This document shows positions 664 to 37,125 of a stretch of 64,000 nt of DNA, piece after piece. The notes under the pieces were generated by a model, which saw only the letters and a program-made list of their open reading frames with translations, was not told the origin of the DNA and made no database searches. The first letter of the stretch is position 1, and each line of letters begins with the position of its first letter. A program made the position numbers and the translations under genes. This DNA is from an uncultured Candidatus Saccharibacteria bacterium (GTDB lineage: Bacteria; Patescibacteriota; Minisyncoccia; Phycocordibacterales; UBA9973), in assembly GCA_964631935.1 (NCBI GenBank), contig CAZWAV010000001.1:4979-68978 (forward strand), read 5' to 3'.

Positions 664-3600
664 TTATATTCTTTTGAAGCTTTCTATTGTTATGCTTCTT
701 TCGCCATTACGCTCTGAGACTTTACCAGAGAGAGCAATGATAACATCTTTAATTAAGGTATCTTTTGTTGACTCGAATAGTTTAGAAAAAACAACAGCAT
801 CTATGGAGCTTGAAAAGTCTGAAACTTTTATAAATGCCATGCGATCACCCTTTTTTGTTACAACTACACGTATATCGTCAACTATCGCAGCTACTGTTAC
901 AGGCATGCCGACTTTAACCTCTTTATTTCTTATTTTCAAAATTAATGTTCCGAATTTCTCAATTTTCTCTTTATAGCTATCTAATGGATGTCCAGAGATA
1001 TAAAGACCAAGTAAATCTTTTTCCCAAGTTAATTTTTCATTCATTGTCGCTTCTAATTGAGGTACAAGTGTTAATTTAGTCTCTATGCCACCAATTGATC
1101 CAAAAAGTGAATCCTGAGCTGCAACGCCGCGAGATTCTTTATTGAAGGCAAGTAATGTTTCTAAGTTACCTATAACCATATTTCTAGGCGCTAAATCATC
1201 CATAGCCCCAGATTTTGCCAAGGCTTCCACGGACTTCTTGTTTAGATTTTTGTGGTTGATTCTTTCAAAGAAATCAGTTAATGATTTAAAAGGCCCACCT
1301 CTTTTTCTCTCTTCTATAATTGAGTCCGCTATATCAGTACCGAGATTTTTTATAGTATATAGTCCGAATCTTATTGTTCTTCCTTCTGGCTGGTTACTTC
1401 CGACGATAACAGTGAACCCTCCAAAACTTTCATTAACGTTTGGTGGTAATACATTAATATTCATCTTTTGACATTCATGGACAATTTCAGCAACCTTTTC
1501 AACATCCCCTGATTCCGCTGTCATAATAGCGGTCATATATTCTACTGGAAAATTCGCCTTCATGTATGCTGTTTGATAGGCTACTCGCCCATAGCTTGCT
1601 GAGTGGGCCTTATTGAAACCATAAGCAGCGAAAGGTTCTATCTGGTTCCACAATTCAGTAGCTTTCTTCTTTGGCCATTTACTATGCTCTACAGCACCAT
1701 TTATAAAGTGGTCTTTTTGTTCGGCCATCTCTTTAGGTATTTTTTTACCAACAGCTTTACGGAATTTATCTGCTTCACCCCAGCTATAACCTGAAATATT
1801 AATTGCAATCAAAAGAAGATCATCTTGGTAAACAAGGACACCGTATGTCTGTTTAAGAATTGGTTCAAGGGCTGGATCTAGGTATTTTATAAGCTTGGCA
1901 TTGTGTTTACGCTCAATATAAAGAGGGATAAATTGCATTGGTCCGGGACGATAAAGCGCGACCATGGCGTTTATATCGTGTATGGTTGTAGCCTTTAGTT
2001 CTCTTAGGTAGTGTGTAATACCCGAGCCATTTAATTGGAAAAGACCCATTGTCTCTCCACGAGCCAACATCTCAAATGTCTTCTTGTCGTCTAGTGGAAT
2101 TTTATCTAAATCAACATCTTTATCTAAAATAGTTTTTACGAGTGATACTGCGTCAGCTAATATCGCCAAATTTCTTATTCCCAAGAAGTCGAATTTAGGT
2201 AGACCCGCATCTTCAATACTATACATATCGTATTGAGTGATAATATTTCCACCCTTAGGGTCAAATTGAATAGGTGAGAATTCATAAAGTGGCCTCGGAG
2301 CTATCACAATCCCAGCAGCGTGTACTGAGATATGTCTGACGCACCCTTCCATTTTTTTTGCTAGATCTATTATCTTTTTTGTATCTGGCTCTTTTTCATA
2401 AGCCTCTTTTAATTCAGGTACTATTTCAAATGCATGATCAATAGTCATGGGCATACCTTGAGAACCAAGAGGAATCATACTAGATATACGATCACCGACA
2501 GTGTATGGGTAGCCCAAGGCGCGAGCCACATCTCTGACTGAGCCTTTAGCCATCATAGTTCCAAAAGTACCGATCTGAGCTACTTTATCCTCACCGTATT
2601 TTTCTTTAGCATATGCAATGATTTCATCGCGTCTGTTATCAGCATAGTCCATGTCTATATCAGGCAATGATGGACGCTCAGGGTTTAGGAAACGTTCAAA
2701 AGGTAGTTTGTATTCAAGTGGATCAACATTTGTAATACCCAACAAATAGGTAGTTAATGATCCTGCGACACTTCCTCGAATATTTGTCAGTATTCCATGC
2801 TCACGTGCGTAACGAAGAAGGTCACCAACGACCAGGAAATAGGTCGGGTAACCTTTTTGTTTTATTATTCCTAATTCATATTCCAACCTATCTAAATATT
2901 CTTTAGATTGTGGAAGTTCTCGAAAAGTAAATCCATTATAAGCCTGCTCTCGAAGCATATTATCTCCGGTCGTACCTTCTGGAATAGGAAAATCAGGGAA
3001 GTATGCTTTACCAAGTTCTAGGTCGTATTCTTCACACATATCAGATACTACACGACTATTATCAACAGCTTCTGGTACATCTTTAAAATATTCTCTTGCT
3101 GTCTTCTCATCTATAAGAGAAAAGTCATCATCTGAGAATTCAAACTTACCAGTGTCTTTACCTTCGGCTCCAGTGTTTACCTGCAGTAGTGTGTGGTGAG
3201 CTTCATGATCATCACGGCAAGGGTAATGTGAATCTTGAGTTGCGACAGTAGGAATACCATGTTTTTTTGCAAGTTCTACAAGTGCAGTGCGGAGTTCAGC
3301 ATCCCCCTCGATGTGCGGATGAGATTGGATTTCTATAAAATAATTCTCTTTACCAAATGCTTCTTGGTGATCTTTAATAAGTTCATCTGCACGTTCCATG
3401 TTGCCAGCAAGTACAGCGCGCGAGAGCATCCCACCCATACACCCCGAAAGACATATTATTCCCTCACCATATTCTTTCAGTAATTCTATATCTACACGAG
3501 GCTTGTAATAATACCCTTCAAGGTTTGCCTTTGTGACTAACTTCATCAAATTCTTGTAACCTATTTTATTTTTCGCTAATAAAATCAAGTGGTAGCGTTT

Positions 3601-3855
3601 ATTATCTATACCCGGTTCTTTGTCTGTATGCTTACGTTCAGCTACATATACCTCACATCCAATTATTGGTTTAATACCAGCCTTCTGACATTCTTTATAG
3701 AACTCAATTGCTCCATACATATTTCCGTGGTCAGTAACGGCAATTGCAGGCATACCGTGCTCTTTTGCAATACGGACAATATCTTCAATTTTGGACAATC
3801 CATCAAGCAGGGAATAGTGGGAATGGGTGTGGAGGTGGATAAACTTGGAATTCAT
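664..3855 (-). CDS. dnaE: DNA polymerase III alpha subunit (compact, 1063 aa)
   Basis: PHP domain at the N-terminus (HLHTHSHYSLLDG...). Polymerase core and OB fold are present throughout the ORF. Confidence 0.95.
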   Translation of the reverse strand: MNSKFIHLHTHSHYSLLDGLSKIEDIVRIAKEHGMPAIAVTDHGNMYGAIEFYKECQKAGIKPIIGCEVYVAERKHTDKEPGIDNKRYHLILLAKNKIGYKNLMKLVTKANLEGYYYKPRVDIELLKEYGEGIICLSGCMGGMLSRAVLAGNMERADELIKDHQEAFGKENYFIEIQSHPHIEGDAELRTALVELAKKHGIPTVATQDSHYPCRDDHEAHHTLLQVNTGAEGKDTGKFEFSDDDFSLIDEKTAREYFKDVPEAVDNSRVVSDMCEEYDLELGKAYFPDFPIPEGTTGDNMLREQAYNGFTFRELPQSKEYLDRLEYELGIIKQKGYPTYFLVVGDLLRYAREHGILTNIRGSVAGSLTTYLLGITNVDPLEYKLPFERFLNPERPSLPDIDMDYADNRRDEIIAYAKEKYGEDKVAQIGTFGTMMAKGSVRDVARALGYPYTVGDRISSMIPLGSQGMPMTIDHAFEIVPELKEAYEKEPDTKKIIDLAKKMEGCVRHISVHAAGIVIAPRPLYEFSPIQFDPKGGNIITQYDMYSIEDAGLPKFDFLGIRNLAILADAVSLVKTILDKDVDLDKIPLDDKKTFEMLARGETMGLFQLNGSGITHYLRELKATTIHDINAMVALYRPGPMQFIPLYIERKHNAKLIKYLDPALEPILKQTYGVLVYQDDLLLIAINISGYSWGEADKFRKAVGKKIPKEMAEQKDHFINGAVEHSKWPKKKATELWNQIEPFAAYGFNKAHSASYGRVAYQTAYMKANFPVEYMTAIMTAESGDVEKVAEIVHECQKMNINVLPPNVNESFGGFTVIVGSNQPEGRTIRFGLYTIKNLGTDIADSIIEERKRGGPFKSLTDFFERINHKNLNKKSVEALAKSGAMDDLAPRNMVIGNLETLLAFNKESRGVAAQDSLFGSIGGIETKLTLVPQLEATMNEKLTWEKDLLGLYISGHPLDSYKEKIEKFGTLILKIRNKEVKVGMPVTVAAIVDDIRVVVTKKGDRMAFIKVSDFSSSIDAVVFSKLFESTKDTLIKDVIIALSGKVSERNGERSITIESFKRI

Positions 3856-3891
3856 TTCCCTAGTATAGCAAATGAGGTATGATAGCTCTAT

Positions 3892-4494
3892 ATGGACAAG
3901 GAGCCTAAAAATCAGCAGTATATCATTGGAATTGACGAAGTAGGTAGAGGTCCAATTGCGGGACCGGTAGCTGTTTGTTCATTTAAGTGTGAACCTAGCT
4001 TCTTTAATTTAATTTCAATTGATATACCACTTCGAGATTCAAAGAAATTAACTAAAAAGCAAAGAGAGAAATGGTTTGAATATTTAAAAGAAGAAAAAGC
4101 AAAAGGTAATTGCGATTTTTCTGTTTCTCTTGTTTCTGCTGAGTGGATTGATAAAGTCGGCATTGTTCGATCTATTACAAAAGCACTCGAAACTTCACTC
4201 CTAAAGGTAACAAAAGATCCAAAAGAAGTCTCAGTCTATCTAGACGGTGGCCTAAAAGCCCCAGAGCAATTTATATACCAAGAAACAATTATCAAAGGCG
4301 ATGAACTTCATCCAGTGATATCGTGTGCATCAATTGTGGCCAAAGTCTCTCGGGATAGTTTGATGGATACATACGCGAAAGAGTATCCAGATTATGGATT
4401 TGAAAATCATTCGGGTTATGGTACAAAAGCCCACTATTATGCCATAAAAAAGTATGGGCAAACCAAGCTCCATAGGAAAAGTTTCCTACACTAG
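3892..4494 (+). CDS. rnhB: Ribonuclease HII
   Basis: IIGIDEVGRGPIAGPVAV N-terminal catalytic motif and typical length. A TATGAT -10 lies 8 nt before the ATG and there is no SD. Confidence 0.9.
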   Translation: MDKEPKNQQYIIGIDEVGRGPIAGPVAVCSFKCEPSFFNLISIDIPLRDSKKLTKKQREKWFEYLKEEKAKGNCDFSVSLVSAEWIDKVGIVRSITKALETSLLKVTKDPKEVSVYLDGGLKAPEQFIYQETIIKGDELHPVISCASIVAKVSRDSLMDTYAKEYPDYGFENHSGYGTKAHYYAIKKYGQTKLHRKSFLH

Positions 4495-5006
4495 AAGAAT
4501 AAGTGATATATAAAACTCACTATAGGGTCTATTTCTGGACCATAAACTATTGCCCCGCCTAGAGCCCCGGTTATAGTAATAGTCACAAGTCCTATCAATG
4601 CAAGAATTATGGGTAAATACCCACTAAGTATTTTTTGAGCAATGTTTACTTTTATGTTCCAAATTTTTGAGAACTTACTAGATCTTAGCTTTTGATCAAA
4701 TTCTGATTTACTTATCCAGGACACAAGATAGACGATAGCTAAAAATCCAAAAATCCAAGTAGAAGCTGATGCAAAAGTTGAGTGCGTTTCTATAAGCGGA
4801 CGTAAATCTTTATTGGCTAAATTCTCAGCACTTTCCCCAGTATTAAGAGCCAGAAAGGCAGATATCGTACCAGTGATGACAAGAATTGCTTTTACGTAAA
4901 ACCAATAAGCCGTCTCCTTTATTTTTTTAAATCTTAGCAATTCAGCTATAGCGTAAATTGTCATTAAAGCTATAGGAAAGTGTACAAAAATTGGATGTAT
5001 ATTCAT
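4491..5006 (-). CDS. Integral membrane protein (DUF2231-like)
   Basis: Four predicted TM helices. Start HPIFVHFPIAL is typical of DUF2231. Confidence 0.4.
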   Translation of the reverse strand: MNIHPIFVHFPIALMTIYAIAELLRFKKIKETAYWFYVKAILVITGTISAFLALNTGESAENLANKDLRPLIETHSTFASASTWIFGFLAIVYLVSWISKSEFDQKLRSSKFSKIWNIKVNIAQKILSGYLPIILALIGLVTITITGALGGAIVYGPEIDPIVSFIYHLFF

Positions 5007-5018
5007 GAACTAATTATA

Positions 5019-7601
5019 CTACTTTCCATAGTTCTTTTCTAACCATTTTTTTATCTTCTTTTTATCATCTTTAAGCCACGTTGCATTTGAGTAAATACGC
5101 TCGTATGCTTGCTCGAGTGTCCGCTCCGCTCCTGGAGCACTATTTTTCTTAAAGAATTTCTTGGCCTCAACAGCATCTTTTACTTTAGTATGAGTTCCGA
5201 GCGGAGATAGTAGTCGTGAAAGAAAGTGACCACCTTCACCGTAATTTTTTAGGATTACTTTCCAATTACTTTTTACAAATTTCCAAGTTAGCTCACGACC
5301 ATAAGAATTATTCCAAGTAGCTGTCATTAAATGTGGGGCATCTTGGTTTCTAATTGAGCCTGATAGTGTGTAGTTCAAGGTCTTTTTTAGTAACTTCTCA
5401 TTTTTAAAAGCAGTCAATGCTCTGGCGTATCGATCCTTTTCCTCATGCATTTCTGTAATTTTATGTAGGTGTTCAAATTCTTCCCAGTCTTTTACGTTGC
5501 CGTTTTGAGCAACAATAGAGTATATGACACTTCTAAGATCTGCTTCTATTGGATTTTTTTTCTTATCTTTAAATTTTTCTTGAGCTTTCTTTATTATAAT
5601 TTTATCTCCATAAAATCCTGCCTGTGAAAGAGCAAGTGAACGCAGAAATGTAGAGGAGTGATCTTCGCCACTAATCTTTTCCCAACCCATTTTTTGGGCA
5701 AGTGGGCTAAATAACGACAAAACATACTTATTGTAGATAGATGTATACTTTTCTTCCGAAATAATATTTTTTATTTTATTAACACCAGAAGCTATTTCAG
5801 CCCATACTATATACTCTGTCTCATTTTTATAAGAAAGAGAAAATTCCATTGCATCAGCGCTCGATATATACCCACCTTCTGCTAGTGCAAATAAATCGCG
5901 AATAATACCTAACCGGTCATGCAATGATATTTTTCCTTCTTTTATATCTTGTCTAAGGTGTTCAAGTGTTTCTTTGTCATATAATACTCTTGCTAATGAT
6001 TTCTCTCCCTTATTTATTTTACCAATTGATGTTCCAATTAGAGGAGAAGAATTTTTTGTAATTAATGTCTTTAATACCTCATTATTACTTTCGTATGAGA
6101 ATGGAATTTGCCATAGAGTTTTATCCTTAGTTTCTTTTGCTGAAATACGACTTGCAAAAAATCTCTCTTGGGAAATCTTGTATATATTTTTACTTTTACT
6201 TAAAGATAAAAGTGGATAGCCGGTTTTCTGAGTCCAATTCTGCATAATTTTTGACACTGGTTTTTTGCTAGTTTTTTCAAATGAGTGCCAAAGGTCTACT
6301 GTTTGTGTGTTTTTATAACTATGCTTCTTTAAATAGTGCTGTAAACCTAATCTAAAAGCATCCTCTCCTATATAGGAAGCAAGCATCCTTATAACAGTTG
6401 CTCCTTTTGCATAAGAGACCATGTCAAAAATTTCATTTATTTCATCAGGGTGATGTACTGTAACTTCAATAGGGTGAGAATTTTTTAATGAATCAAGTCT
6501 TAGTGCTGCTGCTACATCTGCTGTTAAGAATTGATCCCATACTTTCCACTCCGGGAATATGTGGTCAACAGCTAAGTATTCTATATATGATGCAAATCCT
6601 TCATTAAGCCAAAGATCAGTCCACCATTCCATTGTTACCAAGTTCCCGAACCATTGATGAGCAAGTTCATGGGCAATCACAAGCGCTACCCATTGTTTAT
6701 TCGAAAGAGATGAATTTTCCTCATCAACCAGTATGGCTGTCTCTCTATAGGTTACAGCCCCCCAGTTTTCCATTGCACCAGATTCAAAATCTGGTATTGC
6801 AATCATATCAAGCACAGGAAGTGGGTAGGGAATATCGAAATATTTATTATAAAATTCAAGAGATCGTATTGCCACATCAAGTGCAAATTTTGCCTGATGT
6901 TTCTTGCCTACAGTTGTAAACACTCGTACCTGGGTCTTATCTTTTGTGTATCCCTCCACGTATTCAAACTCACCAATAATAAAGGCAAGTAAATATGTAG
7001 ACATTCGAGGAGTTGAAGCAAATTCAATGACCTTATAACCACCTTCATGTTCCTTAATACTTGAGGGCATCGTATTTGATATGGCTGTATGACTACCAGG
7101 TACAATGAGAGATACATCAAAGATTGCTTTTTGTGCTGGTTCATCAAAGCAGGGGAATGCACGCCTCGCATCTGTAGCCTCAAATTGTGTTGTTGCTAAG
7201 TGTTTCTGCTCACCATTTAGTGTATACCTGCTACGATAAAATCCTCGGAGTGTTTCATTTATAATTCCTTCAAATACGATAGAGAGTTTTGCCTTACCTT
7301 TTTTAATTGGAGATTTAAATGTGAATGTCGCTGTCTCGGCTTTGATATCATAAGAAATAATACTTGCAAATTGGTTATCTTTATTTTGGATTATTTCGAC
7401 CGTCTCAATTTTTATATCTTTAGAGTGTAGAGTTATTTCTTTTATCGGCTTGTCTATGGTCAGAGTTATAATCTCTTTACCTGAAAACGTAAAGGCTTCC
7501 AAATCTGGTTTGAGAGTCAAATTATATCGCTCTGGTTTTATGTGTGGAACGAGCCGAACGGATTTTATGTTCTTTTTGTTTAGTGGTTGTTTCTGAGTCA
7601 T
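5019..7601 (-). CDS. pepN: Aminopeptidase N, M1 family zinc metallopeptidase
   Basis: GAMEN motif followed by HELAHQWFGN...LWLNEGFA (HEXXH-18-E). Confidence 0.9.
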   Translation of the reverse strand: MTQKQPLNKKNIKSVRLVPHIKPERYNLTLKPDLEAFTFSGKEIITLTIDKPIKEITLHSKDIKIETVEIIQNKDNQFASIISYDIKAETATFTFKSPIKKGKAKLSIVFEGIINETLRGFYRSRYTLNGEQKHLATTQFEATDARRAFPCFDEPAQKAIFDVSLIVPGSHTAISNTMPSSIKEHEGGYKVIEFASTPRMSTYLLAFIIGEFEYVEGYTKDKTQVRVFTTVGKKHQAKFALDVAIRSLEFYNKYFDIPYPLPVLDMIAIPDFESGAMENWGAVTYRETAILVDEENSSLSNKQWVALVIAHELAHQWFGNLVTMEWWTDLWLNEGFASYIEYLAVDHIFPEWKVWDQFLTADVAAALRLDSLKNSHPIEVTVHHPDEINEIFDMVSYAKGATVIRMLASYIGEDAFRLGLQHYLKKHSYKNTQTVDLWHSFEKTSKKPVSKIMQNWTQKTGYPLLSLSKSKNIYKISQERFFASRISAKETKDKTLWQIPFSYESNNEVLKTLITKNSSPLIGTSIGKINKGEKSLARVLYDKETLEHLRQDIKEGKISLHDRLGIIRDLFALAEGGYISSADAMEFSLSYKNETEYIVWAEIASGVNKIKNIISEEKYTSIYNKYVLSLFSPLAQKMGWEKISGEDHSSTFLRSLALSQAGFYGDKIIIKKAQEKFKDKKKNPIEADLRSVIYSIVAQNGNVKDWEEFEHLHKITEMHEEKDRYARALTAFKNEKLLKKTLNYTLSGSIRNQDAPHLMTATWNNSYGRELTWKFVKSNWKVILKNYGEGGHFLSRLLSPLGTHTKVKDAVEAKKFFKKNSAPGAERTLEQAYERIYSNATWLKDDKKKIKKWLEKNYGK

Positions 7602-16011: not shown

Positions 16012-16263
16012 ATGACACAAAAAGTAGTATCTGACGGTACAATACATAAATTACCGGCTGATCTCAAAGAAGCTATTGTCTCTAACGATAAGGTGCTAGC
16101 CTTGTGGGAAGATATCACACCTCTTGCACGCAATGAGTGGATTTGCTGGGTTATCTCTGGCAAAAAATCCGAGACGAGGGATATTCGCATAAAGAAAGCT
16201 ATTTCAAAAATGAAAGGGGAAATGCGCCGACCATGTTGCTGGGCAGGGTGTACCCACCGCTAA
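16012..16263 (+). CDS. YdeI/OmpD-associated family small protein
   Basis: Pattern ...LPADLKEAIVSNDKVLALWEDITPLARNEWICWV...KKAISKMK is typical of YdeI/DUF1801-like proteins. Confidence 0.55.
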   Translation: MTQKVVSDGTIHKLPADLKEAIVSNDKVLALWEDITPLARNEWICWVISGKKSETRDIRIKKAISKMKGEMRRPCCWAGCTHR

Positions 16264-16273
16264 TGGCATAAAT

Positions 16274-16306
16274 AAAAAACCGAACCATCTAGTGATTCGG
16301 GTTTAT
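16274..16306. terminator. Terminator hairpin (imperfect)
   Basis: AAACCGAA ... TTCGGGTTT with flanking A and T runs. Confidence 0.6.
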
Positions 16307-16325
16307 AAATATTATATAATCTTGT

Positions 16326-16697
16326 TTAGTTGAAAATTTCCTTAGAAAATTTATCTAAGCAATAAGGTTTCTGACAATAACGCATATCATCCGGGAAACC
16401 CATTTCCTTTAATTTTTCCTGATACACTACTGTATGCAAAATAATTTCTGTTTTTGATGTATCGATAATTTCGCTAATTTTGTTGAATAGTTTAAGGCCT
16501 GCTCCATCGATACGATCAAACTTAACCAAAGGTTCAAAAATTATTTTTAATATACATTGCTCTTGTAATAGGCGAATAATATCTTTCTTGTTTGTTTCGA
16601 TAAAAACTTCTACATCGCTATGTTCCAATTCTAATAATTCTTTAAAATTATCTTGATAATTTTCATCGTGATCAATAATTAAAATTTTCTTCTCCAT
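16326..16697 (-). CDS. Stand-alone receiver (CheY-like) domain protein
   Basis: KILIIDHDE at the N-terminus, a central D in ...FDRIDGAG, and a conserved KP near the C-terminus. Confidence 0.4.
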   Translation of the reverse strand: MEKKILIIDHDENYQDNFKELLELEHSDVEVFIETNKKDIIRLLQEQCILKIIFEPLVKFDRIDGAGLKLFNKISEIIDTSKTEIILHTVVYQEKLKEMGFPDDMRYCQKPYCLDKFSKEIFN

Positions 16698-16822
16698 ATT
16701 TCCTGTTTTTTTGGTTTAGCATAAAAGACTTTTAAATAAATCTTCTTTGCTAAACCAAAAACCTATATAAAATAACTAATGTTACAAGCATGATAACATA
16801 TTACACGGTTTTGTCAAAATTA

Positions 16823-16851
16823 CCCCGAACTTAGTAGGATATTCGAATGAG
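16823..16851 (-). repeat. Cassette repeat copy A (partial: tRNA-Asn-3'-like module only)
   Basis: CCCCGAACTTAGTAGGATATTCGAATGAG matches the distal module of copies C, D and E. Confidence 0.6.
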
Positions 16852-16873
16852 TATAATATTAACTAACAAATAG

Positions 16874-17602
16874 TTACTTTATAGTTTTTACCGAGTTAAT
16901 TAAAATTTCTTTATTATTTCTGACATAATTAAAACTGGCTTTACCTTGGATGTGTCCATCTTCATAAGTCATTGTTCCAGTTTTCATTGATGGGTTTACG
17001 TTTACTAAAGTTACATACCATGAACCACCTAAAACAGGTTTTTCTGGCGCAATAGTTTTAATATTGTCTCTGATATATTTTTCAACGACAATTTTATCAT
17101 CAAGTGCCTCACAATCTGTTTGTGACATTTGAAATCCAGGTGTGATCTTGGTGGCATCTTTATATACATATACTCCATCTCCTTTGTCTATCATTTCACC
17201 AAACAAAGCGACAGCACTACCTTCCCCAAATTCAATTTTCAATTGCTCTGTTACGTGCATTCCTTCTCCCAGTGACTCCCACAAAACATCTGCAATACGA
17301 CCACTAATCTTGGGATCCATTTTACCAACTGTTCCGTTAAATTTCCCAATCTTGCTATCCTTTTCGGCTGGAAGATTTTGATATTCGCCAATTACTTTAT
17401 CACCTAAAATACTCATTTTAAGCCATGCACGGTCAGTAAGGCCACTTGAAGTTTCTTTAGAGTATTGATAACACATATCAGTAGTTTCTGTTTTTGAAGG
17501 GTTTTGGGCTACTTCTTCTTGCTCTTTATTCCTTGAAAGAAAAACAAAGATCAAGATTATAACAACAATAGAGATAACTATGTAAGTTAATATTTTTTTC
17601 AT
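16874..17602 (-). CDS. Cassette gene 1: membrane-anchored extracytoplasmic protein, unknown function
   Basis: N-terminal TM anchor followed by a soluble domain. Flanked by repeat copies A and B. Confidence 0.5.
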   Translation of the reverse strand: MKKILTYIVISIVVIILIFVFLSRNKEQEEVAQNPSKTETTDMCYQYSKETSSGLTDRAWLKMSILGDKVIGEYQNLPAEKDSKIGKFNGTVGKMDPKISGRIADVLWESLGEGMHVTEQLKIEFGEGSAVALFGEMIDKGDGVYVYKDATKITPGFQMSQTDCEALDDKIVVEKYIRDNIKTIAPEKPVLGGSWYVTLVNVNPSMKTGTMTYEDGHIQGKASFNYVRNNKEILINSVKTIK

Positions 17603-17614
17603 ATATAAACTATA

Positions 17615-17708
17615 TCATTAGTCTTGAACTTATACTAAGGCAACAAAAATAACCACTATAAAATAAGCTTCAAAAAAGTGTCTAGAACTTTGGATAATGT
17701 TCTAATGG
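17615..17708 (-). repeat. Cassette repeat copy B (degenerate full-length)
   Basis: TCATTAGTCTTGAACTTATACTAAGGCAACAAAAATAACC ... GTCTAGAACTTTGGATAATGTTCTAATGG is collinear with the other copies. Confidence 0.55.
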
Positions 17709-17726
17709 CAATAATATTTTGACTAA

Positions 17727-18107
17727 TTAAAATTCAACTATTGGTTTGAATCCTCCGCACACGAAACGCTTCATATCGACTGGCATTGTAGAAGAGTCGA
17801 AATCTTTTATACTTGGATCACTCATTACTTTTTTGTTCACTTGATCTCTGTGTGCACGAGATTTATATACGATCCAGGAGAAAACAACAGTCTCATCAGC
17901 CTTAAGATTTGCAAGCTTAATAAATCCTTTCTGTGGCATTCCTTTCTTTACCCTTAGATCATCTCCTATGCATTCAAAATATTCTAACGCGCCATTTTTC
18001 TTCCACATCTTAGCTCCCCATTCTGCCATCTTCTTGTAAGCGGCTAAATCTTTCTTTTTTATAGGTATCACAAAACCATCAACATATTTTTTACTTTTTG
18101 TATTCAT
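17727..18107 (-). CDS. Cassette gene 2: DUF1428 family protein
   Basis: YVDGFVIPIKKKDLAAYKKMAEWGAKMWKKNGALEYFECIGDD matches the DUF1428 N-terminus. Confidence 0.6.
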   Translation of the reverse strand: MNTKSKKYVDGFVIPIKKKDLAAYKKMAEWGAKMWKKNGALEYFECIGDDLRVKKGMPQKGFIKLANLKADETVVFSWIVYKSRAHRDQVNKKVMSDPSIKDFDSSTMPVDMKRFVCGGFKPIVEF

Positions 18108-18147
18108 TTTATTTTGATAAAATTAATAATAACACCTGCTAATTTTA

Positions 18148-18238
18148 TCATAGGTTCGAAGTTCCTAAAATGGTAACAAAAAAATCATCATATTTCTAAG
18201 TTGATTTTTATATGCTCCGAACTTGGGATGATGTTCGG
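18148..18238 (-). repeat. Cassette repeat copy C (full)
   Basis: TCATAGGTTCGAAGTTCC...GGTAACAAAAAAATCATC-loop-GTTGATTTTT...GCTCCGAACTTGGGATGATGTTCGG. Confidence 0.75.
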
Positions 18239-18244
18239 CAGAAT

Positions 18245-18937
18245 CTAAGGTAGACATTGCTGGTAGATTGCAAAAATATCAGTTCCCAATATATCAAAAT
18301 AAGCTGTGTAACCAAATTCTGCGGTTGAATTATCTACTTGTGGTTGAATCTTAGATATAAAATCTGATGTATTTTGCAGGCTAGGACCTACACTGCTGCC
18401 ATTAGCATTCTGAATTCCACAATCATAAACTCTAGTGTTGTTAACCACTTTTAAATTCCTTATTTTAGGATTATTATTAATGAAAAATCCTCCTGTACTA
18501 TCAACACCAGGGATCCATTCTTTATTAAGAGTTAAAATATCAACTGCAAATATCCACTTATTATCCTCTCTTTTTATTGATTTTATTGCGCCTGGCTGTT
18601 TAATAAAACTTTCTTTATCAAATGACACTACAAAACCAGCGTCATTTTTTTTCGCCCACTCACTTATATTTGTACCATCAGCAAATTGAGCATCTTCAAA
18701 CCTTGATGTAGTATCAATACCAGCATCTTCAATTGCTTTAAGTTCTTCTTGGGACAGTTGGTCAGGTAATAATTTTTTTTCTTTAGAAGTAGAGTCTTGT
18801 ACTTGTGATAATTCTACTTTAGTTCCCAAGATCATATTAACCACTTTAGGCACCCACATTTTTTGAGTCGCTAATAAACCTAAACCTATAACAATTAAAA
18901 CAAGAAGAAAAATTCTAATAAATTTTATCAAATTCAT
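18245..18937 (-). CDS. Cassette gene 3: membrane-anchored secreted protein, unknown function
   Basis: N-terminal TM anchor followed by an extracytoplasmic domain. Confidence 0.5.
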   Translation of the reverse strand: MNLIKFIRIFLLVLIVIGLGLLATQKMWVPKVVNMILGTKVELSQVQDSTSKEKKLLPDQLSQEELKAIEDAGIDTTSRFEDAQFADGTNISEWAKKNDAGFVVSFDKESFIKQPGAIKSIKREDNKWIFAVDILTLNKEWIPGVDSTGGFFINNNPKIRNLKVVNNTRVYDCGIQNANGSSVGPSLQNTSDFISKIQPQVDNSTAEFGYTAYFDILGTDIFAIYQQCLP

Positions 18938-18949
18938 ATATAAATAATA

Positions 18950-19037
18950 TCATAGGTTCGAACTTCTACTAAGGTAACAAAAAATCACCTTATTTTTAAA
19001 GTGATTTTCTAGTGCTCCGAACCTGGGACGATGTTCA
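18950..19037 (-). repeat. Cassette repeat copy D (full)
   Basis: Collinear with copies C, E and G. Hairpin AAAATCAC / GTGATTTT. Confidence 0.75.
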
Positions 19038-19047
19038 AATTTATTTA

Positions 19048-19572
19048 TTATCGTCTTAGTAAAGCATCTACTGCAGCATCAAGGTTATCAAAAACATCTG
19101 ATTGATCCTTTTTACATTGGTCATATTTTGTATCACCTGGTCCACCATATCCTCCGCAGTTTGACCAACTTAGATTGAATTTTGTATTTCTGGTAGCGCT
19201 GTAGTTTTCAGTTACATACGTATATTCTCCACCCCAATGACCAGCACCACCATCAACAAAACTCGTAATGCAATACTTCCTGCCATTAATTATTTTTTCA
19301 GTTTTTGTTGCTTGAGGAGATTTAGAATCTGGTTCACAAATAAATGGGGTGTAGGGGGCTGGGGAGTTGTGAATTGCTGGTGGCCATGTTTGCGAGCTAA
19401 TATAGCCTCGATTTATAGCACCTGAGACAGTAGACAATATATTATTCTCATTAGTAGTTGTTTGATTTGTTGAACTAGGTAAAACAACTGTTCTTCGTTC
19501 GGGTTTCAATTGCAAATATCCTAATATTCCGACAATGAGTACTAAAAACACAATTATAATATTTTTATTCAT
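19048..19572 (-). CDS. Cassette gene 4: membrane-anchored secreted Cys-containing protein, unknown function
   Basis: N-terminal TM anchor. Six Cys residues in the mature part. Confidence 0.5.
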   Translation of the reverse strand: MNKNIIIVFLVLIVGILGYLQLKPERRTVVLPSSTNQTTTNENNILSTVSGAINRGYISSQTWPPAIHNSPAPYTPFICEPDSKSPQATKTEKIINGRKYCITSFVDGGAGHWGGEYTYVTENYSATRNTKFNLSWSNCGGYGGPGDTKYDQCKKDQSDVFDNLDAAVDALLRR

Positions 19573-19584
19573 GCATAAATTCTA

Positions 19585-19678
19585 TCATAGGTTCGAACTT
19601 CCACTAAGGTAACAAAAAATCACCCTATTTCTAAGGTGATTTTTATATGCTCCGAATTTGGGATGATGTTCGAATGAG
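19585..19678 (-). repeat. Cassette repeat copy E (full, with compensatory CC/GG change in hairpin)
   Basis: AAAAATCACC-CTATTTCTAA-GGTGATTTTT hairpin has a 10-bp stem. The covarying stem bases relative to copies D and G indicate selection on structure. Confidence 0.75.
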
Positions 19679-19710
19679 TTTACTTTATAGATAATAATGT
19701 AAAACAAAAA

Positions 19711-19743
19711 TACAGCTATGCTCCTTTGGGGGTATAGCTGTAT
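19711..19743 (-). terminator. Terminator of cassette gene 5
   Basis: ACAGCTAT...ATAGCTGT hairpin followed by a T-run on the minus strand. Confidence 0.55.
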
Positions 19744-19761
19744 TGTAGTGAATAAATCTCT

Positions 19762-19971
19762 TTACTGCGTGGGGGGCTCTGGGCCAAAATATTGAGTCCA
19801 TTCTTCCCTGGTACAATTGGGGCATTCGTGAAGGTGTGTTTTTCCACGACATGAATTGTCATGTTCCCATACATGACCACAATTATCACACTTGTGTCTG
19901 TGAAAACCATCAGGGCTTTCATAATTTACGGCGGATGATTGTGATTGAGGCAGTGTTTGATTGTTTGGCAT
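19762..19971 (-). CDS. Cassette gene 5: small zinc-ribbon-like protein (two CxxC pairs)
   Basis: HKCDNCGHVWEH...HECPNCTREEW. Preferred over the overlapping 19716-19922 ORF, which is in another frame. Confidence 0.4.
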   Translation of the reverse strand: MPNNQTLPQSQSSAVNYESPDGFHRHKCDNCGHVWEHDNSCRGKTHLHECPNCTREEWTQYFGPEPPTQ

Positions 19972-20116
19972 CTTTGATCGTTTTATTGTGTAAGAGTTAT
20001 TGATTCACCTCCACTCCCCAATAGAAGCAGAGAAGAATCAACAAAATTCACAATAAATAATCTCAAAGAACTACCATTGCTTGTACAATAGCATAAATAT
20101 ATTAATTTGTCAAATT

Positions 20117-20146
20117 GCTCCGTATCTGGGAGGATGTTCGAATGAG
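20117..20146 (-). repeat. Cassette repeat copy F (partial: tRNA-3'-like module)
   Basis: GCTCCGTATCTGGGAGGATGTTCGAATGAG. Confidence 0.6.
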
Positions 20147-20162
20147 CATTATAGAGTAAATA

Positions 20163-21131
20163 TTATACGCCAATTTTCGGTTCCCAATTTTTTACACTTG
20201 TATGTAGTATTTTCAGTTTAGAAAGCCAATTTATAACAAAGAAAAATTGCTTAATAAAAATTAAGAAAATAACTGTAGATAATAAATTGAAAAGTAAATG
20301 CATATTGGCAATTTGTTGAGTCACGTTACCTCCGAATCTGATAATTAAACTAGTAAGCATTGGTAAAAATGGATAAATTATTATTACTCCAATCACATTA
20401 AATAGAAAGTGGGCTAATGCTGTTTTCTTTGCTTCTATTTGCATCGGTATAGTAGCTAGAAGTGCCGTCGAAGTAGTTCCAATGTTTGCACCCAGCATTA
20501 ATCCTATACCTTGAGGCAAGCTGATTAAGCCTGAAATGGATAAAGCCAGAATCAGCCCCCCTGTGACACTACTTGATTGAAATATTGTTGTAATGAGTAT
20601 TCCTACAATAATAGCTATAGGAATATTAGTTATCTTTGATATTGCATTTAATATATCTGGGTTATCGGTAAGTGGTGCTACTACTTGTGTTATCAGAGAA
20701 ATACAAAAGAAAACTAACCCAAAATAAAAAACAGACTTACCATAAATACTATATTTCTTTCCAAATTTTAGAAGTAAGAAACCAAATATAATGATAAAAG
20801 GCGCAATTGCTGTGACATTAAATGCAATTAACTGAGAAGTAATAGTGGTTCCAATATTTGCGCCAAAAACAATACTCAGACTTTCATAAAAAGTAATAAT
20901 ACCAGCATTTACAAGTCCAACAGTCATCACAGTTGTTGCGGTACTCGATTGAATGATTGAGGTTACAGCCGTCCCAGTAAGAGTTCCTATTATTGGATTT
21001 TTAGTTAAACGTTTTAAAAGAGTTTTTAACCTAACACCTGCAACTTGTTCAATCTGCCTGCTAAATTTGTTTATACTAAATATAAAAATAAGCACTAAGG
21101 CTACAACAGTGACAGTAATTTGAAATATCAT
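20163..21131 (-). CDS. Cassette gene 6: Na+/phosphate cotransporter family (PF02690-like) membrane protein
   Basis: Two internal repeats carrying QSSTATT / QSSSVTG and GANIGTT signatures. Confidence 0.75.
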   Translation of the reverse strand: MIFQITVTVVALVLIFIFSINKFSRQIEQVAGVRLKTLLKRLTKNPIIGTLTGTAVTSIIQSSTATTVMTVGLVNAGIITFYESLSIVFGANIGTTITSQLIAFNVTAIAPFIIIFGFLLLKFGKKYSIYGKSVFYFGLVFFCISLITQVVAPLTDNPDILNAISKITNIPIAIIVGILITTIFQSSSVTGGLILALSISGLISLPQGIGLMLGANIGTTSTALLATIPMQIEAKKTALAHFLFNVIGVIIIYPFLPMLTSLIIRFGGNVTQQIANMHLLFNLLSTVIFLIFIKQFFFVINWLSKLKILHTSVKNWEPKIGV

Positions 21132-21143
21132 TTATACATTATA

Positions 21144-21206
21144 TCAAAGGTTCGAACTTCTACTAAGGTAACAAAAAATCACCTTATTTCTAAAGTGATT
21201 TTTCGA
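21144..21206 (-). repeat. Cassette repeat copy G (proximal module plus hairpin, fused directly to the genuine tRNA-Asn 3' end)
   Basis: TCAAAGGTTCGAACTTCTACTAAGGTAACAAAAAATCACC...GTGATTTTT, then the tRNA. The hairpin also serves as the tRNA terminator. Confidence 0.75.
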
Positions 21207-21208
21207 GG

Positions 21209-21280
21209 CTCCGGAGGCAGGGATCGAACCTGCGACCAATCGATTAACAGTCGATTGCTCTACCGCTGAGCTACTCCGGA
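21209..21280 (-). tRNA. tRNA-Asn (anticodon GTT)
   Basis: Manual fold: acceptor TCCGGAG/CTCCGGA, D-arm GCTCAGCGGTAGAGC, anticodon loop CTGTTAA, T-arm GGTTCGATCC. Confidence 0.85.
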
Positions 21281-21283
21281 ATT

Positions 21284-21411
21284 TGTATTCGGAAGTAGCT
21301 AAGCGGAACCGCTGGTCACAAATATTTTTCTGTTGAAAAATTTCGCGACCCCGACTCGGCACCTACGTGCCTGCGCCTTTGAAATGCTAGGCATTTCAAC
21401 TACTCCGGAAT
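21284..21411 (-). ncRNA. GC-rich structured ~125-nt element co-transcribed 5' of tRNA-Asn (function unknown)
   Basis: The first 11 nt (TTCCGGAGTAG) are identical to the tRNA 5' end. Internal hairpins are TTGAAATGC/GCATTTCAA, GGCAC/GTGCC and AGCG/CGCT. A closing helix joins the 5' and 3' ends. GC content is well above that of the flanks. Confidence 0.35.
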
Positions 21412-35795: not shown

Positions 35796-36266
35796 ATGAA
35801 AAAAAATATATCAATATCTATAATACTCCTCACAATACTGTTTGCCCCGTTTATTGGTACAAAGTTAGCCTACGTAGAAGCAAAGCCTATTGTTCCTGAT
35901 TGTGGAACCCTCTCTACTCCTACTGATAGTAGTGGTAATCCAAAAAAAGATTCTGCAGGTAACATAATCACACAAAAAGTCATAACTAATCCTTGTGATT
36001 TCGATGATTTAATGGATTTGATAAACAACCTCATTAACTTCTTGCTATTCGTTATTGCTACACCCCTCGTGGCAATCATACTTTGCTATGTAGGATTTAA
36101 ATTGCTTACTTCAGGGGGTAATTCAGAAGGTATGACTAAAGCCAAAACTATACTAAAGAATGTTATTTTTGGTTATATAATAGCTCTTATTGCATGGCTG
36201 CTTATAAAGACCATACTTACAACTGTAGGTATTGATCCAAAGGATGCTTTCCTTATTGAATTCTAA
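35796..36266 (+). CDS. VirB2/TrbC-like pilin paralog 1
   Basis: Signal peptide, a short variable domain with 2 Cys, then hydrophobic helix - charged loop (SGGNSEGMTKAK) - hydrophobic helix. Confidence 0.5.
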   Translation: MKKNISISIILLTILFAPFIGTKLAYVEAKPIVPDCGTLSTPTDSSGNPKKDSAGNIITQKVITNPCDFDDLMDLINNLINFLLFVIATPLVAIILCYVGFKLLTSGGNSEGMTKAKTILKNVIFGYIIALIAWLLIKTILTTVGIDPKDAFLIEF

Positions 36267-36297
36267 TTATCAACTAAATGTTATATAATAATCTCAT

Positions 36298-36819: not shown

Positions 36820-36822
36820 TTT

Positions 36823-37125
36823 ATGGATATTTGTAAAACAGCAGAGACAAAATTAGATAGCATTGGGCATATATTTAACTGGGCAAGTTGTACGCTTATT
36901 AAGTTTGTTGTGCCTCTACTTTTTTCTCTTGCGACAGTAGGGTTTATCTGGGGTATCATTCAATATTTCTTAAACCCCGATAATGAAGAAAAGCGTAAAA
37001 AAGGGAAGAGTTATATGATTTGGGGATTGATTGCTCTGTTTGTGATGGTGAGTATGTGGGGACTGGTTGGAGTACTGACGAAGACCTTCGGCATCCAGAC
37101 ACTTATTCCCCAGCTTTCACAGTAG
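36823..37125 (+). CDS. VirB2/TrbC-like pilin paralog 3
   Basis: …FIWGIIQYFLNPDNEEKRKKGKSYMIWGLIALFVMVSMWG…. Confidence 0.5.
   Translation: MDICKTAETKLDSIGHIFNWASCTLIKFVVPLLFSLATVGFIWGIIQYFLNPDNEEKRKKGKSYMIWGLIALFVMVSMWGLVGVLTKTFGIQTLIPQLSQ

Follow-up and report, generated by a model that had tools for sequence, protein, structure and literature searches.

A probable serine-recombinase gene-cassette array at tRNA-Asn in a Patescibacterium

Results

Organization of the locus

A stretch of 64,000 nucleotides (hereafter the window) was analysed around a tRNA-Asn gene, which is followed on the minus strand by a run of co-oriented genes in which every gap is filled by a copy of a repeat. Seven copies (A to G) were recognized, with up to three parts: a conserved boundary motif (module 1), an A-run/hairpin/T-run, and a second conserved stretch (module 3) that leads into the promoter of the next gene. 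The features are, in order from the tRNA:

21207-21280 (-): tRNA-Asn(GTT), detected by ARAGORN and by Rfam (72.7 bits); its 3' end, ...CTCCGGAGC, is the proximal boundary of the array and the integration point.
21132-21206 (-): head of cassette 1 (copy G without the tRNA), with the A-run/hairpin/T-run at 21172-21205, module 3 at 21143-21172 containing the palindrome GTTCGAAC, and the extended -10 TGATATAAT at 21138-21146; the ATG lies 6 nt downstream.
20163-21131 (-): cassette 1 gene, Na/Pi-cotransporter family, 322 aa (Pfam PF02690, Na_Pi_cotrans, E 1.3e-53).
20114-20166 (-): copy F, module 1 only (nhmmer 43.2 bits); the plus strand reads TTG-LRIWEDVRMSIIE-stop; followed by a TTGACA-17-TATTGT promoter (20085-20113, promoter scan) and a long 5' UTR instead of hairpin plus module 3.
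19762-19971 (-): cassette 2 gene, zinc-ribbon miniprotein, 69 aa (weak Pfam hits), with its own terminator hairpin, an inverted repeat at 19704-19749 (-15.0 kcal/mol, z -4.9).
19573-19689 (-): copy E, with module 1 at 19646-19689 (plus strand ATG-LRIWDDVRMSLLYR-stop), the hairpin at about 19615-19644, module 3 at 19584-19613 and the -10 six nt before the ATG.
19048-19572 (-): cassette 3 gene, 174 aa with an N-terminal membrane anchor, no family.
18938-19050 (-): copy D, with module 1 at 19012-19050 (plus strand GTG-LRTWDDVQIYLLSS-stop), a hairpin and module 3 at 18949-18978.
18245-18937 (-): cassette 4 gene, 230 aa with an N-terminal membrane anchor, no family.
18138-18253 (-): copy C, with module 1 at 18210-18253 (plus strand ATG-LRTWDDVRQNLR-stop), a weakened hairpin and a module 3 variant; here a ~30-nt leader precedes the ATG.
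17727-18107 (-): cassette 5 gene, DUF1428, 126 aa (Pfam PF07237, E 5.4e-34).
17603-17716 (-): copy B, with a degenerate module 1, a second hairpin type that no longer folds, a degenerate module 3 and a -10 TATAGT six nt before the ATG.
16874-17602 (-): cassette 6 gene, 242 aa with an N-terminal membrane anchor, no family.
16790-16858 (-): copy A, a degenerate module 1 (16817-16858) followed directly by a TTGACA-16-TATCAT promoter (16790-16817).
16326-16697 (-): last co-oriented gene, 123 aa, no family, followed by a G+C-rich terminator at 16280-16300.
16012-16263 (+): convergent OmdA gene, the conserved distal border of the array.

As whole repeat units, the copies extend over 21126-21241 (G, in which the true tRNA 3' end takes the place of module 1), about 20114-20166 (F), 19567-19689 (E), 18932-19050 (D), 18138-18253 (C), 17598-17716 (B, full length but degenerate) and 16817-16858 (A), with E, D and C being full copies. 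The preliminary description of a repeat in every gap of this gene run was thus confirmed.

To test whether copies occur elsewhere in the window, 30-nt and 26-nt consensus patterns were searched with up to three mismatches, giving matches only inside the array, whereas none of 100 shuffled sequences gave any match. A profile of module 1 likewise gave four hits in the 64 kb, all in the array. The G+C content is lower across 14-22 kb of the window (0.33-0.34) than in nearly all other 2-kb bins (0.36-0.39, with two bins at 0.35).

The hairpins of copies G, E and D fold strongly (-15.3, -14.3 and -13.3 kcal/mol; z -6.8, -5.1 and -5.0, respectively), whereas that of copy C is weak (-4.6 kcal/mol, z -1.4) and that of copy B does not fold. 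The stem of copy E had been proposed to carry compensatory changes, but its differences from G and D are two one-sided, pairing-preserving changes and not a double compensatory change. The -10, initially read as TATGAT-like, is TGnTAnnnT, and the ATG follows after exactly 6 nt in copies G, E, D and B, which implies leaderless mRNAs. The hairpin plus module 3 corresponds to a terminator plus an extended -10 promoter.

The cargo assignments made beforehand (Na/Pi cotransporter, DUF1428, zinc ribbon) held, and the three membrane-anchored proteins showed no significant similarity to one another. No recombinase, integrase or transposase family was found among the 64 ORFs of the window that were scanned, and a tblastn search with large serine recombinases (LSRs) gave no hit in the window.

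Module 1 forms arrays linked to tRNA-Asn in many contigs

To determine if module 1 is a local motif, metagenome contigs were scanned with it, revealing at least 120 contigs with matches, whereas viral contigs gave none. The profile detected 210 hits in 128 loci (the loci and contigs are designated below by L numbers), with co-oriented arrays of 2-8 copies and no locus with mixed strands. The 77 segments between copies had a median length of 871 bp and mostly contained one gene each; of their 127 ORFs, 102 were co-oriented with the array, and the ORFs fell into 118 families. Of the 18 tRNAs present on those contigs, 12 were tRNA-Asn, and all 12 lay upstream of the copies on the same strand. The profile score of module 1 falls with distance from the tRNA in the window and in L095, but not in L157 or L159.

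The head was also found to be separable from module 1: many boundaries carry module 1 without hairpin or module 3, cassettes with antisense genes or with a TTGACA-type promoter lack the head, and the same head type follows tRNA-Asn in L159, L172, L175 and L177. In the alternative offered in the preliminary description, the array would be a locally amplified promoter/terminator module. In such a case, tandem duplication of the tRNA-flanking terminator and promoter would have been followed by gene replacement, with no mobile element involved. The near identity of the heads within the window and their presence after tRNA-Asn in other genomes agree with this reading, but module 1 is shared with at least 120 unrelated contigs and with recombinase genes, the cargo genes are unrelated to one another and relatives differ in cassette content. 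This reading is contradicted for module 1 and survives only as a description of the heads; as an account of the array it is very unlikely.

Module 1 is the C-terminal coding end of a large serine recombinase gene

When module 1 was read on the opposite strand, it was found to encode (W)LRTWDDVR.., the C-terminal tail of LSRs, with conservation of period 3 that was strongest at codon position 2. Full LSRs with Resolvase, Recombinase and Zn_ribbon_recom domains end in this tail in L143, L200 and L203, and so do LSR C-terminal fragments in L052, L119, L202 and L168. In contrast, related LSRs read into tRNA-Asn instead, as in L179, L204, L047 and most of the 120 best homologues out of at least 2657. 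In L204 and L179 a displaced tail of a second type lies about 10 kb and 9.3 kb away, respectively, followed by hairpin, promoter and gene. The coding signature of module 1 may, however, only reflect its origin in different LSR genes and not present selection.

Module 1 had been taken for a decayed copy of the tRNA 3' end. The resemblance is real but partial, and the alignment needs a 5-nt gap: TTCGA lies 26 nt from the GGAGC end in module 1 but 21 nt in tRNA-Asn. This matches the 5-bp inward shift of the zinc-ribbon-domain motif in attB relative to attP described for serine integrases (PMC3783163). Module 1 is better described as the element-side arm of the att site, which doubles as the last ~17 codons of the recombinase gene on the opposite strand.

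A role of module 1 as RNA or as a micro-ORF was also considered, either as a tRNA-like 3' UTR element (hairpin CGAAC/GTTCG plus GAGCCA) guiding 3' processing of each cassette mRNA, or as a translated ~15-aa peptide on the opposite strand. In favour of this, it lies in the 3' UTR of every cassette gene just before or after a terminator, it partly resembles a tRNA acceptor/T-arm end, and the window copies start with ATG, GTG or TTG on the opposite strand. However, apart from the period-3 conservation, in many contigs no start codon precedes the LRTW frame, no Rfam family matches, and the stem shows non-compensated changes (position 14 is G to A in 10% of copies and position 16 is T to G in 8%), making such a role improbable.

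The preliminary description also pointed to a resemblance to an integron array. In a true integron-type array, the ~95-nt unit would be an attC site recombined as folded single-stranded DNA by a tyrosine integrase (IntI) encoded elsewhere. Single, co-oriented and highly diverse genes separated by a structured repeat, the inverted outer TTCGAAC and GTTCGAA with AAC...GTT ends, and the lack of a nearby integrase, as in attC clusters without one, are in agreement with this. Against it, the conserved part shows a coding pattern and is the tail of a serine recombinase, modules 1 and 3 are not complementary beyond 7 nt, many boundaries have module 1 alone, the cassettes carry their own promoters, and the recombinases found at array ends are LSRs, with no tyrosine recombinase seen beside any array examined. 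Thus, membership among integrons fails, and this reading is close to refuted.

Cassette content differs among relatives and apparently within the population

Two observations had been set beforehand as capable of refuting a cassette system, namely the same genes in the same order in related genomes and copies scattered genome-wide upstream of unrelated genes, and neither refuted it. Copies are not scattered across the window, and two relatives (L096 and L201) hold different or reordered cassettes between tRNA-Asn and OmdA, which is the conserved distal border in all three. The DUF1428 gene is the only array gene shared with both (tblastn, 75-76% identity), a homologue of the zinc-ribbon gene sits at a different array position in L201, and the hairpin type of copy B (TTTTGAAGCTTAT..TGGTTATTTTTG) occurs in L096.

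A contig from the same population (L002) differs from the window from the first base after the tRNA: it reads tRNA..GGAGC followed, where the window has cassette 1, by an LSR C-terminal region that aligns to residues 381-531 of the L143 protein (E 6e-7). L002 could, however, be an assembly join through a shared tRNA between close relatives.

Shared sequence often stops exactly after GGAGC. This was observed in L186/L200, where one whole cassette is shared and is followed by another cassette in one contig and by an LSR in the other, and also in L135/L153 and L172/L185. Breakpoints are not only at this position, as they also occur at the left edge of module 1 (L083 vs. L151), between the hairpin and module 3 (L083 vs. 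L193) and just before the ATG (L185 vs. L172), a pattern that fits homologous exchange as well.

Cassette turnover could then be driven by homologous recombination, with module 1 (~45 nt) and the heads (~85 nt) as portable homology patches through which DNA taken up from relatives is swapped in by RecA, the recombinase explaining only where the modules first came from. The several breakpoint positions, the near identity of heads within one genome (84-100% among G, E and D; 96% between the L172 and L185 heads), which suggests gene conversion, and the absence of a recombinase from the window agree with this. Nevertheless, it does not explain why arrays always start at tRNA-Asn and are strictly co-oriented, why LSR reading frames cross the boundary in two alternative states, or why many joins fall on the same base after GGAGC although the sequences to the right are unrelated. 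As the sole explanation it is considered unlikely, but it is compatible with site-specific integration as a second layer.

Discussion

The above results describe a variable array of mostly single-gene cassettes next to tRNA-Asn, of a type found widely in Patescibacteria and for which no describing paper was found. The interpretation given in the preliminary description was partly supported. Site-specific integration at the 3' end of tRNA-Asn, cassette-like architecture and cassette turnover were upheld, and the recombinase missing from the window was found elsewhere, although it is an LSR and not IntI. In contrast, module 1 is not a fossil of the host tRNA, the hairpin plus module 3 is not part of one indivisible recombination site, and the system is neither local nor miniature-only, as the same motif bounds elements of about 10 kb.

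The closest concepts are tRNA-island elements (tycheposons) and SCCmec arrays. Tycheposons of Prochlorococcus and similar islands (bioRxiv 10.1101/2020.12.28.424599) also integrate at the 3' end of a tRNA, with successive insertions pushing older ones inward, islands littered with repeated att remnants and fragmented integrases, a cargo of adaptive accessory genes, small streamlined host genomes and, in a minority, a large serine recombinase. Here, however, the repeats are not partial tRNAs but the recombinase's own tail, the units are mostly single genes each with a standard promoter head, the host phylum is different and a single tRNA (Asn) is used throughout. In SCCmec and SCC composite islands, Ccr large serine recombinases drive integration at the 3' end of the conserved gene rlmH, tandem elements are separated by short direct repeats that carry coding sequence, and many members lack a recombinase (pseudo-SCC), but the repeat encodes the end of the host gene and not of the recombinase, the units are kilobases to tens of kilobases long and the hosts are Firmicutes.

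Compared with LSR integrative elements and phage serine integrases (attP x attB), the enzyme has the same three domains, there is a short common core, CGGAGC(CA), the outer motif lies 5 bp closer to the centre on the host side, and a small HTH_17 gene next to the recombinase in L203 and L204 is a candidate directionality factor. In contrast, the element-side site lies inside the recombinase's own reading frame, so that the C-terminal tail of the enzyme changes with integration state, and the site is reused many times, giving arrays of up to eight scars, most without any recombinase, whereas canonical serine integrases do not allow repeated entry at an occupied site.

Integrons and attC clusters without an integrase (CALIN) share co-oriented, mostly single-gene cassettes of very diverse function that each end in a conserved site, and often lack a neighbouring recombinase; in L203 the array is followed by the recombinase. 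They differ in having a tyrosine enzyme, a folded attC instead of a coding-type motif, cassettes without their own promoters, and attI/Pc instead of a tRNA gene as platform. Finally, in cis-mobilisable elements (CIMEs) and accretion-mobilisation of ICEs, elements without an integrase but flanked by att sites can be carried out by a neighbouring integrase-bearing element that uses the outer sites, the route inferred below for the cassettes, and in some mycobacteriophages with integration-dependent immunity attP lies inside a gene, so that integration changes the C-terminus of that protein. Those systems use tyrosine integrases, the gene cut by attP is the repressor and not the recombinase, and neither forms arrays of single-gene units.

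The explanation that is favoured, with reasonable but not full confidence, is that in this Paceibacteria/Nomurabacteria-type Patescibacterium the 3' end of tRNA-Asn is the attachment site of a family of LSR-carrying integrative elements. The data show that the motif is the LSR tail, that the array is linked to tRNA-Asn in many genomes, that both states of the LSR reading frame exist, that the first position is polymorphic within the same population (with the reservation made for L002), that cassettes are shuffled among relatives and that breakpoints fall directly after GGAGC. In contrast, catalysis of these joins by the LSR and the way in which recombinase-less cassettes move are only inferred. 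No recombinase is present in the window, and no excision or circular junction can be seen without reads. Moreover, canonical serine integrases do not recombine attP with attL, so repeated entry at one tRNA needs either regeneration of the target or a relaxed enzyme. Simple decay of large elements does not predict either that the heads sit at a fixed 3-6 nt from GGAGC and end 6 nt before unrelated genes.

In this view, the element-side site lies inside the 3' end of the LSR gene, whose reading frame ends ..(W)LRTWDDVRxxIIEE and a stop in the excised or tandem state. Integration would cross over at or next to ..CGGAGC, fusing the LSR body to the tRNA, to read ..WLRG and a stop or ..LRRQGSNLRPI.. 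from the antisense tRNA, and leaving the displaced tail, module 1, at the far end of the inserted DNA. Each cassette would consist of a head, a gene and a module 1, the common head being a bidirectional terminator hairpin followed by a -35/GTTCGAAC spacer/TGnTATAAT promoter that fires a leaderless mRNA. Recombinase-less cassettes may arrive either by riding with an LSR element that uses a downstream module 1 as an alternative right-hand site and later leaves alone (cis-mobilisation), or in trans, and homologous exchange through the conserved modules may shuffle them further. Every module 1 copy in the array would therefore be the distal scar of something that entered at this site, and the array of the window, without a resident recombinase, would be analogous to an integrase-less attC cluster.

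Recurrence of the repeat downstream of tRNA-Asn

The repeats that the preliminary description placed beside tRNA-Asn are real, whereas its reading of them as a tRNA-derived, integron-like capture system was only partly supported. Six co-oriented genes follow the tRNA downstream, plus a seventh of 123 aa, and every gap between them holds a copy of the repeat. The features to which the text below refers are as follows.

21207-21280, minus strand: tRNA-Asn(GTT).
21126-21241, minus strand: copy G, the real tRNA end followed by the hairpin and module 3.
21138-21146, 19579-19587, 18944-18952 and 17609-17617, minus strand: extended -10 elements.
20040-20113 and 16700-16817, minus strand: second head type.
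19762-19971, minus strand: zinc-ribbon cassette gene, 69 aa.
16708-16761: 24-nt inverted repeat.
21281-21410, minus strand: element next to the tRNA.
35796-37610, plus strand: four tandem small genes.

Copies E, D and C are full, B is a degenerate full copy, and F and A carry module 1 only. Consensus patterns allowing up to three mismatches were found nowhere else in the 64 kb and in none of 100 shuffles, so that the copies are not scattered across the window. The hairpins of G, E and D fold at -13 to -15 kcal/mol (z -5 to -7), whereas C is weak and B no longer folds. Searches of Rfam at gathering and permissive thresholds revealed only the tRNA. The array region has lower G+C (0.33-0.34) than nearly all other 2-kb bins (0.36-0.39, with two bins at 0.35).

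The cargo proposed in the preliminary description was confirmed as a Na/Pi cotransporter, a DUF1428 protein and a zinc ribbon, and the three membrane-anchored proteins are unrelated. As these three showed no significant similarity, the possibility that they are diverged paralogues from tandem duplication was rejected. The zinc-ribbon protein just reaches the Pfam cut-off for the IS91 transposase zinc-binding domain (26.4 against 26.3 bits), probably a generic zinc-ribbon resemblance. None of the 64 window ORFs scanned with Pfam is a recombinase, integrase or transposase, in agreement with the absence of an integrase noted previously. Away from the array, the four tandem small genes at 35796-37610 all match the type IV secretion pilin family (T4SS_pilin/TrbC).

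An element of about 130-190 nt lies next to tRNA-Asn in the window (21281-21410) and also in L051 (13090-13240), in L052 (13780-13960), a distant GTDB genome, and in L122 (about 430-590). It starts like the tRNA-Asn 5' end (TTCCGGAGTAG), has an internal hairpin, contains GGGGTCGCGAAA ... TTTGTGACC and closes by pairing with its own start. In L122 it ends in a near-perfect tRNA-Asn 3' end followed by a cassette head. It has no Rfam match and could be a structured RNA or a miniature inserted element.

Predicted promoters in the cassette heads

In copies G, E, D and B, the sequence after the T-run reads a -35-like TTAGTA, a 17-nt spacer holding GTTCGAAC, and then TGnTAnnnT, with the start codon following after exactly six bases and no Shine-Dalgarno sequence. 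This corresponds to an extended -10 promoter placed to give a leaderless mRNA, and the same six-base spacing recurs in heads from unrelated contigs such as L186, L198, L096, L118, L177 and L200, giving a consistent set of predicted leaderless genes in an uncultured phylum. These assignments rest on consensus matches only. A generic promoter and terminator scan gave counts no better than shuffles for the region as a whole and missed the A+T-rich hairpins, so direct reading and folding were relied upon instead.

Copies F and A are followed by a second head type, consisting of TTGACA, 16-17 nt, TATnnT and then a long leader. In the window (20040-20113 and 16700-16817) and in L099, L104, L141, L152, L166, L172, L186 and L201, this head reads TTGACA-17-TATGCTAT.. 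followed by a recurrent leader motif, (G)GTAGTTCTTTGA/AATAT, and a long 5' UTR. As it is shared by cassettes with unrelated genes, it may be a conserved leader RNA. In the leader of the 123-aa gene, downstream of the TTGACA promoter that follows copy A, there is also a 24-nt inverted repeat (16708-16761; 88% complementary, 6-nt loop).

Module 1 arrays in other genomes and their link to tRNA-Asn

The organism is a Paceibacteria/Nomurabacteria-type Patescibacterium, whose best fmt matches among GTDB genomes are 59-66% identical. In its closest GTDB relatives (L011, L013, L015 and L017) synteny stops at the hibernation-factor gene and there is no tRNA-Asn at that place, so no orthologous array was obtained from them. 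In contrast, one of the distant genomes, L052, held an exact module-1 match between two tRNA-Asn genes. The second of these (17336-17408) has a 3' acceptor strand (CCACGGA) that does not pair with its 5' strand (TCCGCAG), and looks like a hybrid made by recombination with an element-borne tRNA end of another allele.

A scan of the metagenome collection with GAACATCNTCCCANNTNCGGAGC returned at least 120 contigs, whereas the viral collection gave none, so nothing ties the motif to known phage contigs. A profile built from these matches found 210 hits in 128 loci, of which 50 hold 2-8 copies (8 in L157, 7 in L168 and 5 within 4.2 kb in L191), without mixed strands in any locus. The 77 segments between successive copies have a median of 871 bp (range 337-5121) and mostly hold one ORF, and 102 of 127 ORFs point the same way as the array. 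These ORFs fall into 118 families, including NUDIX hydrolases, small kinases, NYN nucleases, GDSL lipases, methyltransferases, nucleotidyltransferases, an AviRa rRNA methylase and a YafQ toxin. When the module-1 score was compared with distance from the tRNA across arrays, no general trend with age was apparent.

ARAGORN detected 18 tRNAs on the 120 metagenome contigs. Twelve of them are tRNA-Asn(GTT), and in all twelve the tRNA lies upstream of the module-1 copies on the same strand. The window and L052 add two more cases.

Module 1 as the end of a recombinase gene

Read on the opposite strand, module 1 is (W)-L-R-T-W-D/E-D-V-R, and the flank that was not forced by the search pattern continues as x-[A/S]-[I/L]-[I/L]-E-E. 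Conservation is highest at second codon positions, with A at -10 in 98% of copies and C at -1 in 94%. In most copies this is a stub of 12-20 codons, and in the window the stubs read ATG-LRIWDDVRMSLLYR-stop, GTG-LRTWDDVQIYLLSS-stop, ATG-LRTWDDVRQNLR-stop and TTG-LRIWEDVRMSIIE-stop. In L143 and L200, however, it is the C-terminus of full large serine recombinases (LSRs) with Resolvase, Recombinase and Zn_ribbon_recom domains, and in L052, L119, L202 and L168 it ends C-terminal fragments of such enzymes, which lie inside the arrays. In L203, six co-oriented copies form an array in which the last copy is the tail of an intact recombinase. The three-domain architecture was also found for the recombinases of L203, L204 and L179, but the window itself has no recombinase.

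A gene of about 60 aa of the HTH_17 type (excisionase-like) lies directly upstream of the recombinase in L203 (4423-4602), in L204 (9815-9997) and in the P0072 locus, accompanied in the latter two by restriction-modification cargo. It is a candidate directionality factor.

The preliminary description had taken module 1 for a fossil of the T-arm and acceptor 3' half of the tRNA. Its reading as a true T-arm was rejected, because the would-be T-stem strands are not complementary. Only about 16 of 21 tRNA positions are matched, with two indels.

A second state of the recombinase reading frame

In L179, L204 and L047, a recombinase of this family lies directly after tRNA-Asn on the opposite strand and reads into the tRNA, ending ..TWLRG-stop. 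The family has at least 2657 members, and most of the best 120 end ..QP[T/I][W/G]LR[G/R/E], often followed by QGSNLRPI.. or GGRDRTCDQSINSRLLYR, which are translations of antisense tRNA. Others end in a free tail, ..GLPxLDTFRTLDWxxIK, and one ends in the module-1 tail. In L204 that second tail type is encoded 10 kb from the tRNA-recombinase junction, and in array orientation it is followed by a hairpin, a promoter and a gene. L179 has the same tail at 9.3 kb, then one small cassette, and then a module-1 copy with hairpin and module 3. Thus, the far end of the L179 element is the second tail type at about 11458 and not the module-1 copy at 11862. Integration therefore splits the recombinase reading frame, in such a way that the body becomes joined to the tRNA and the old tail is left at the far end.

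Four junction types were found, though not all for one enzyme lineage.

tRNA joined to head: copy G of the window.
Module 1 joined to LSR: L200, L203 and L052.
tRNA joined to LSR: L002 (a contig from the window's own population), L179 and L204.
Module 1 or second tail joined to head: copy E of the window, L179 and L204.

All four change partner right after CGGAGC(CA), at the presumed CGGAGCCA core. MAFFT aligned tRNA ends to module 1 with a 5-nt gap, TTCGA lying 21 nt from the GGAGC end in the tRNA and 26 nt in module 1. In serine integrases, the zinc-ribbon-domain motif lies 5 bp nearer the centre in attB than in attP (PMC3783163). The left arms fit this rule, but the right arms show no clear mirror motif unless the hairpin is ignored, so that, being drawn from sequence alone, the match can be read as support at most and not as proof.

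Variation in the window's population and in relatives

Contigs that carry the identical hibernation-factor protein break at or within the repeats. All short-read contigs of this population (L001-L009) end at or within the tRNA-Asn end or within repeat copies. The array is therefore fragmented in ordinary assemblies and is likely to be missing from bins. In L002 (sample 3300045318), the same tRNA is followed from the first base after GGAGC by an opposite-strand ORF ending ..SMMLRRQGSNLRPID-stop, which aligns to the C-terminal 150 residues of the L143 recombinase (E 6e-7) and to a family of fragments that all end ..ML[R/P]G. A chimeric join through the tRNA between close relatives cannot be excluded in this case. 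The window, L001 and L005 have the NaPi cassette head at that point, whereas L003 and L004 stop exactly at the tRNA end. L002 has only the C-terminal region, and a search with this fragment for a full recombinase in the window's population found only short C-terminal fragments.

The relatives L096 and L201 share DUF1428 (75-76% identity) and the convergent OmdA gene (70-75%) with the window, but carry other genes between the tRNA and OmdA. The zinc-ribbon gene lies after DUF1428 in L201 but three cassettes before it in the window. Thus, relatives do not hold the same genes in the same order, whereas the same order in all related genomes had been set beforehand as an outcome that would refute the cassette reading. 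L186 and L200 share one complete cassette (83% over 977 nt, from module 1 to module 1), followed by another cassette in L186 and by a recombinase in L200, and the similarity ends at GGAGC. L135 and L153, as well as L172 and L185 (99.5% identical to the left), also part company exactly there.

Breakpoints were detected in three other places as well: at the left edge of module 1 (L083 vs. L151), between the hairpin and module 3 (L083 vs. L193) and just before the start codon (L185 vs. L172). Homologous exchange among modules therefore clearly contributes. The heads begin a fixed 3-6 nt after GGAGC and the same four kinds of right-hand neighbour follow tRNA-Asn and module 1, and plain decay of 10-kb elements does not predict such tidy single-gene units.

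A further oddity concerns the head, as the hairpin plus GTTCGAACC aligns with the last ~35 codons of the L002/L143-type recombinase (..KYPEFEPKNY..NEKIPSENEIFSMM/LR, where the slash marks the junction). The 3' end of the recombinase therefore supplies a predicted terminator to the tRNA after integration. Alternatively, heads may descend from such ends.

Discussion

The array is not an integron, and the resemblance to one suggested in the preliminary description does not extend to its defining parts. No IntI-type tyrosine recombinase was found among the window ORFs scanned, and the recombinases found at array ends elsewhere are serine recombinases. As judged from sequence and pairing, the unit does not have the features of attC sites, which are imperfect inverted repeats (R''-L''/L'-R') that fold as one hairpin and conserve structure rather than sequence. 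Module 1 is conserved in sequence with a codon-like period, and many boundaries have module 1 alone. The reading of the whole 95-nt unit as one long attC-like hairpin was rejected because only the 7-nt TTCGAAC/GTTCGAA ends pair outside the central hairpin. Finally, instead of promoterless cassettes expressed from a common Pc promoter beside attI, each cassette has its own predicted -35/extended -10 or TTGACA-type promoter directly upstream. The cassette statistics, in contrast, are shared with integrons.

The system works most like tRNA-island elements (tycheposons) and like SCCmec-type arrays made by serine recombinases. As in tycheposon-like islands, there is integration at the 3' end of a tRNA, tandem accumulation of 2-8 scars and remnants of integrases and att repeats. 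However, the repeat is the recombinase tail and not a partial copy of the target tRNA, and most units are single cargo genes rather than elements with replication or packaging modules. The larger elements L204 and L179 carry restriction-modification cargo. No paper describing this arrangement was found in searches on Patescibacteria/CPR with serine recombinases, integrons, attC and tRNA-Asn.

Catalysis of integration and excision by the recombinase is inferred, and so is the way in which cassettes move. The route that needs only canonical reactions would have three steps, in which an integrated element excises with a downstream module 1 as its right-hand site, carries the intervening cassettes to another genome, and later leaves by its own site, restoring the tRNA/head junction plus the new cassettes. 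Action of the recombinase in trans on cassette circles is the more novel alternative.

There is a real chance, although we consider it less likely than not, that the system is a serine-recombinase counterpart of the integron. In this tentative view, Patescibacteria may possess an integron-like gene-cassette platform run by an LSR instead of a tyrosine integrase, with tRNA-Asn serving as the docking site. Single-gene cassettes would each bring a terminator and a leaderless promoter and would each end in a ~45-nt site that completes the recombinase's own reading frame. The C-terminal tail of the enzyme (LRTWDDVR.. against tRNA-derived WLRG/QGSNLRP..) would then report, and possibly control, whether it sits next to a cassette or next to the tRNA, and cassettes would be captured, shuffled and exported through these sites.

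The arrangement in which the recombinase gene is cut and re-completed by its own site is an unusual way to couple enzyme form to integration state, and one that can be tested directly. Module 1 is a ready-made marker for finding these arrays in metagenomes, the recombinases and their short sites are candidate tools for genome engineering, and the heads give a clean set of predicted natural leaderless promoters for an uncultured phylum. Patescibacteria (CPR) have tiny genomes, and little has been described of how they gain accessory genes. A single, easily recognized hot spot is present in at least 120 metagenome contigs, in the relatives L096 and L201 and in the window's own population, and it holds highly diverse small enzymes, transporters and surface proteins. 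It would therefore be a main entry point for gene flow in this group.
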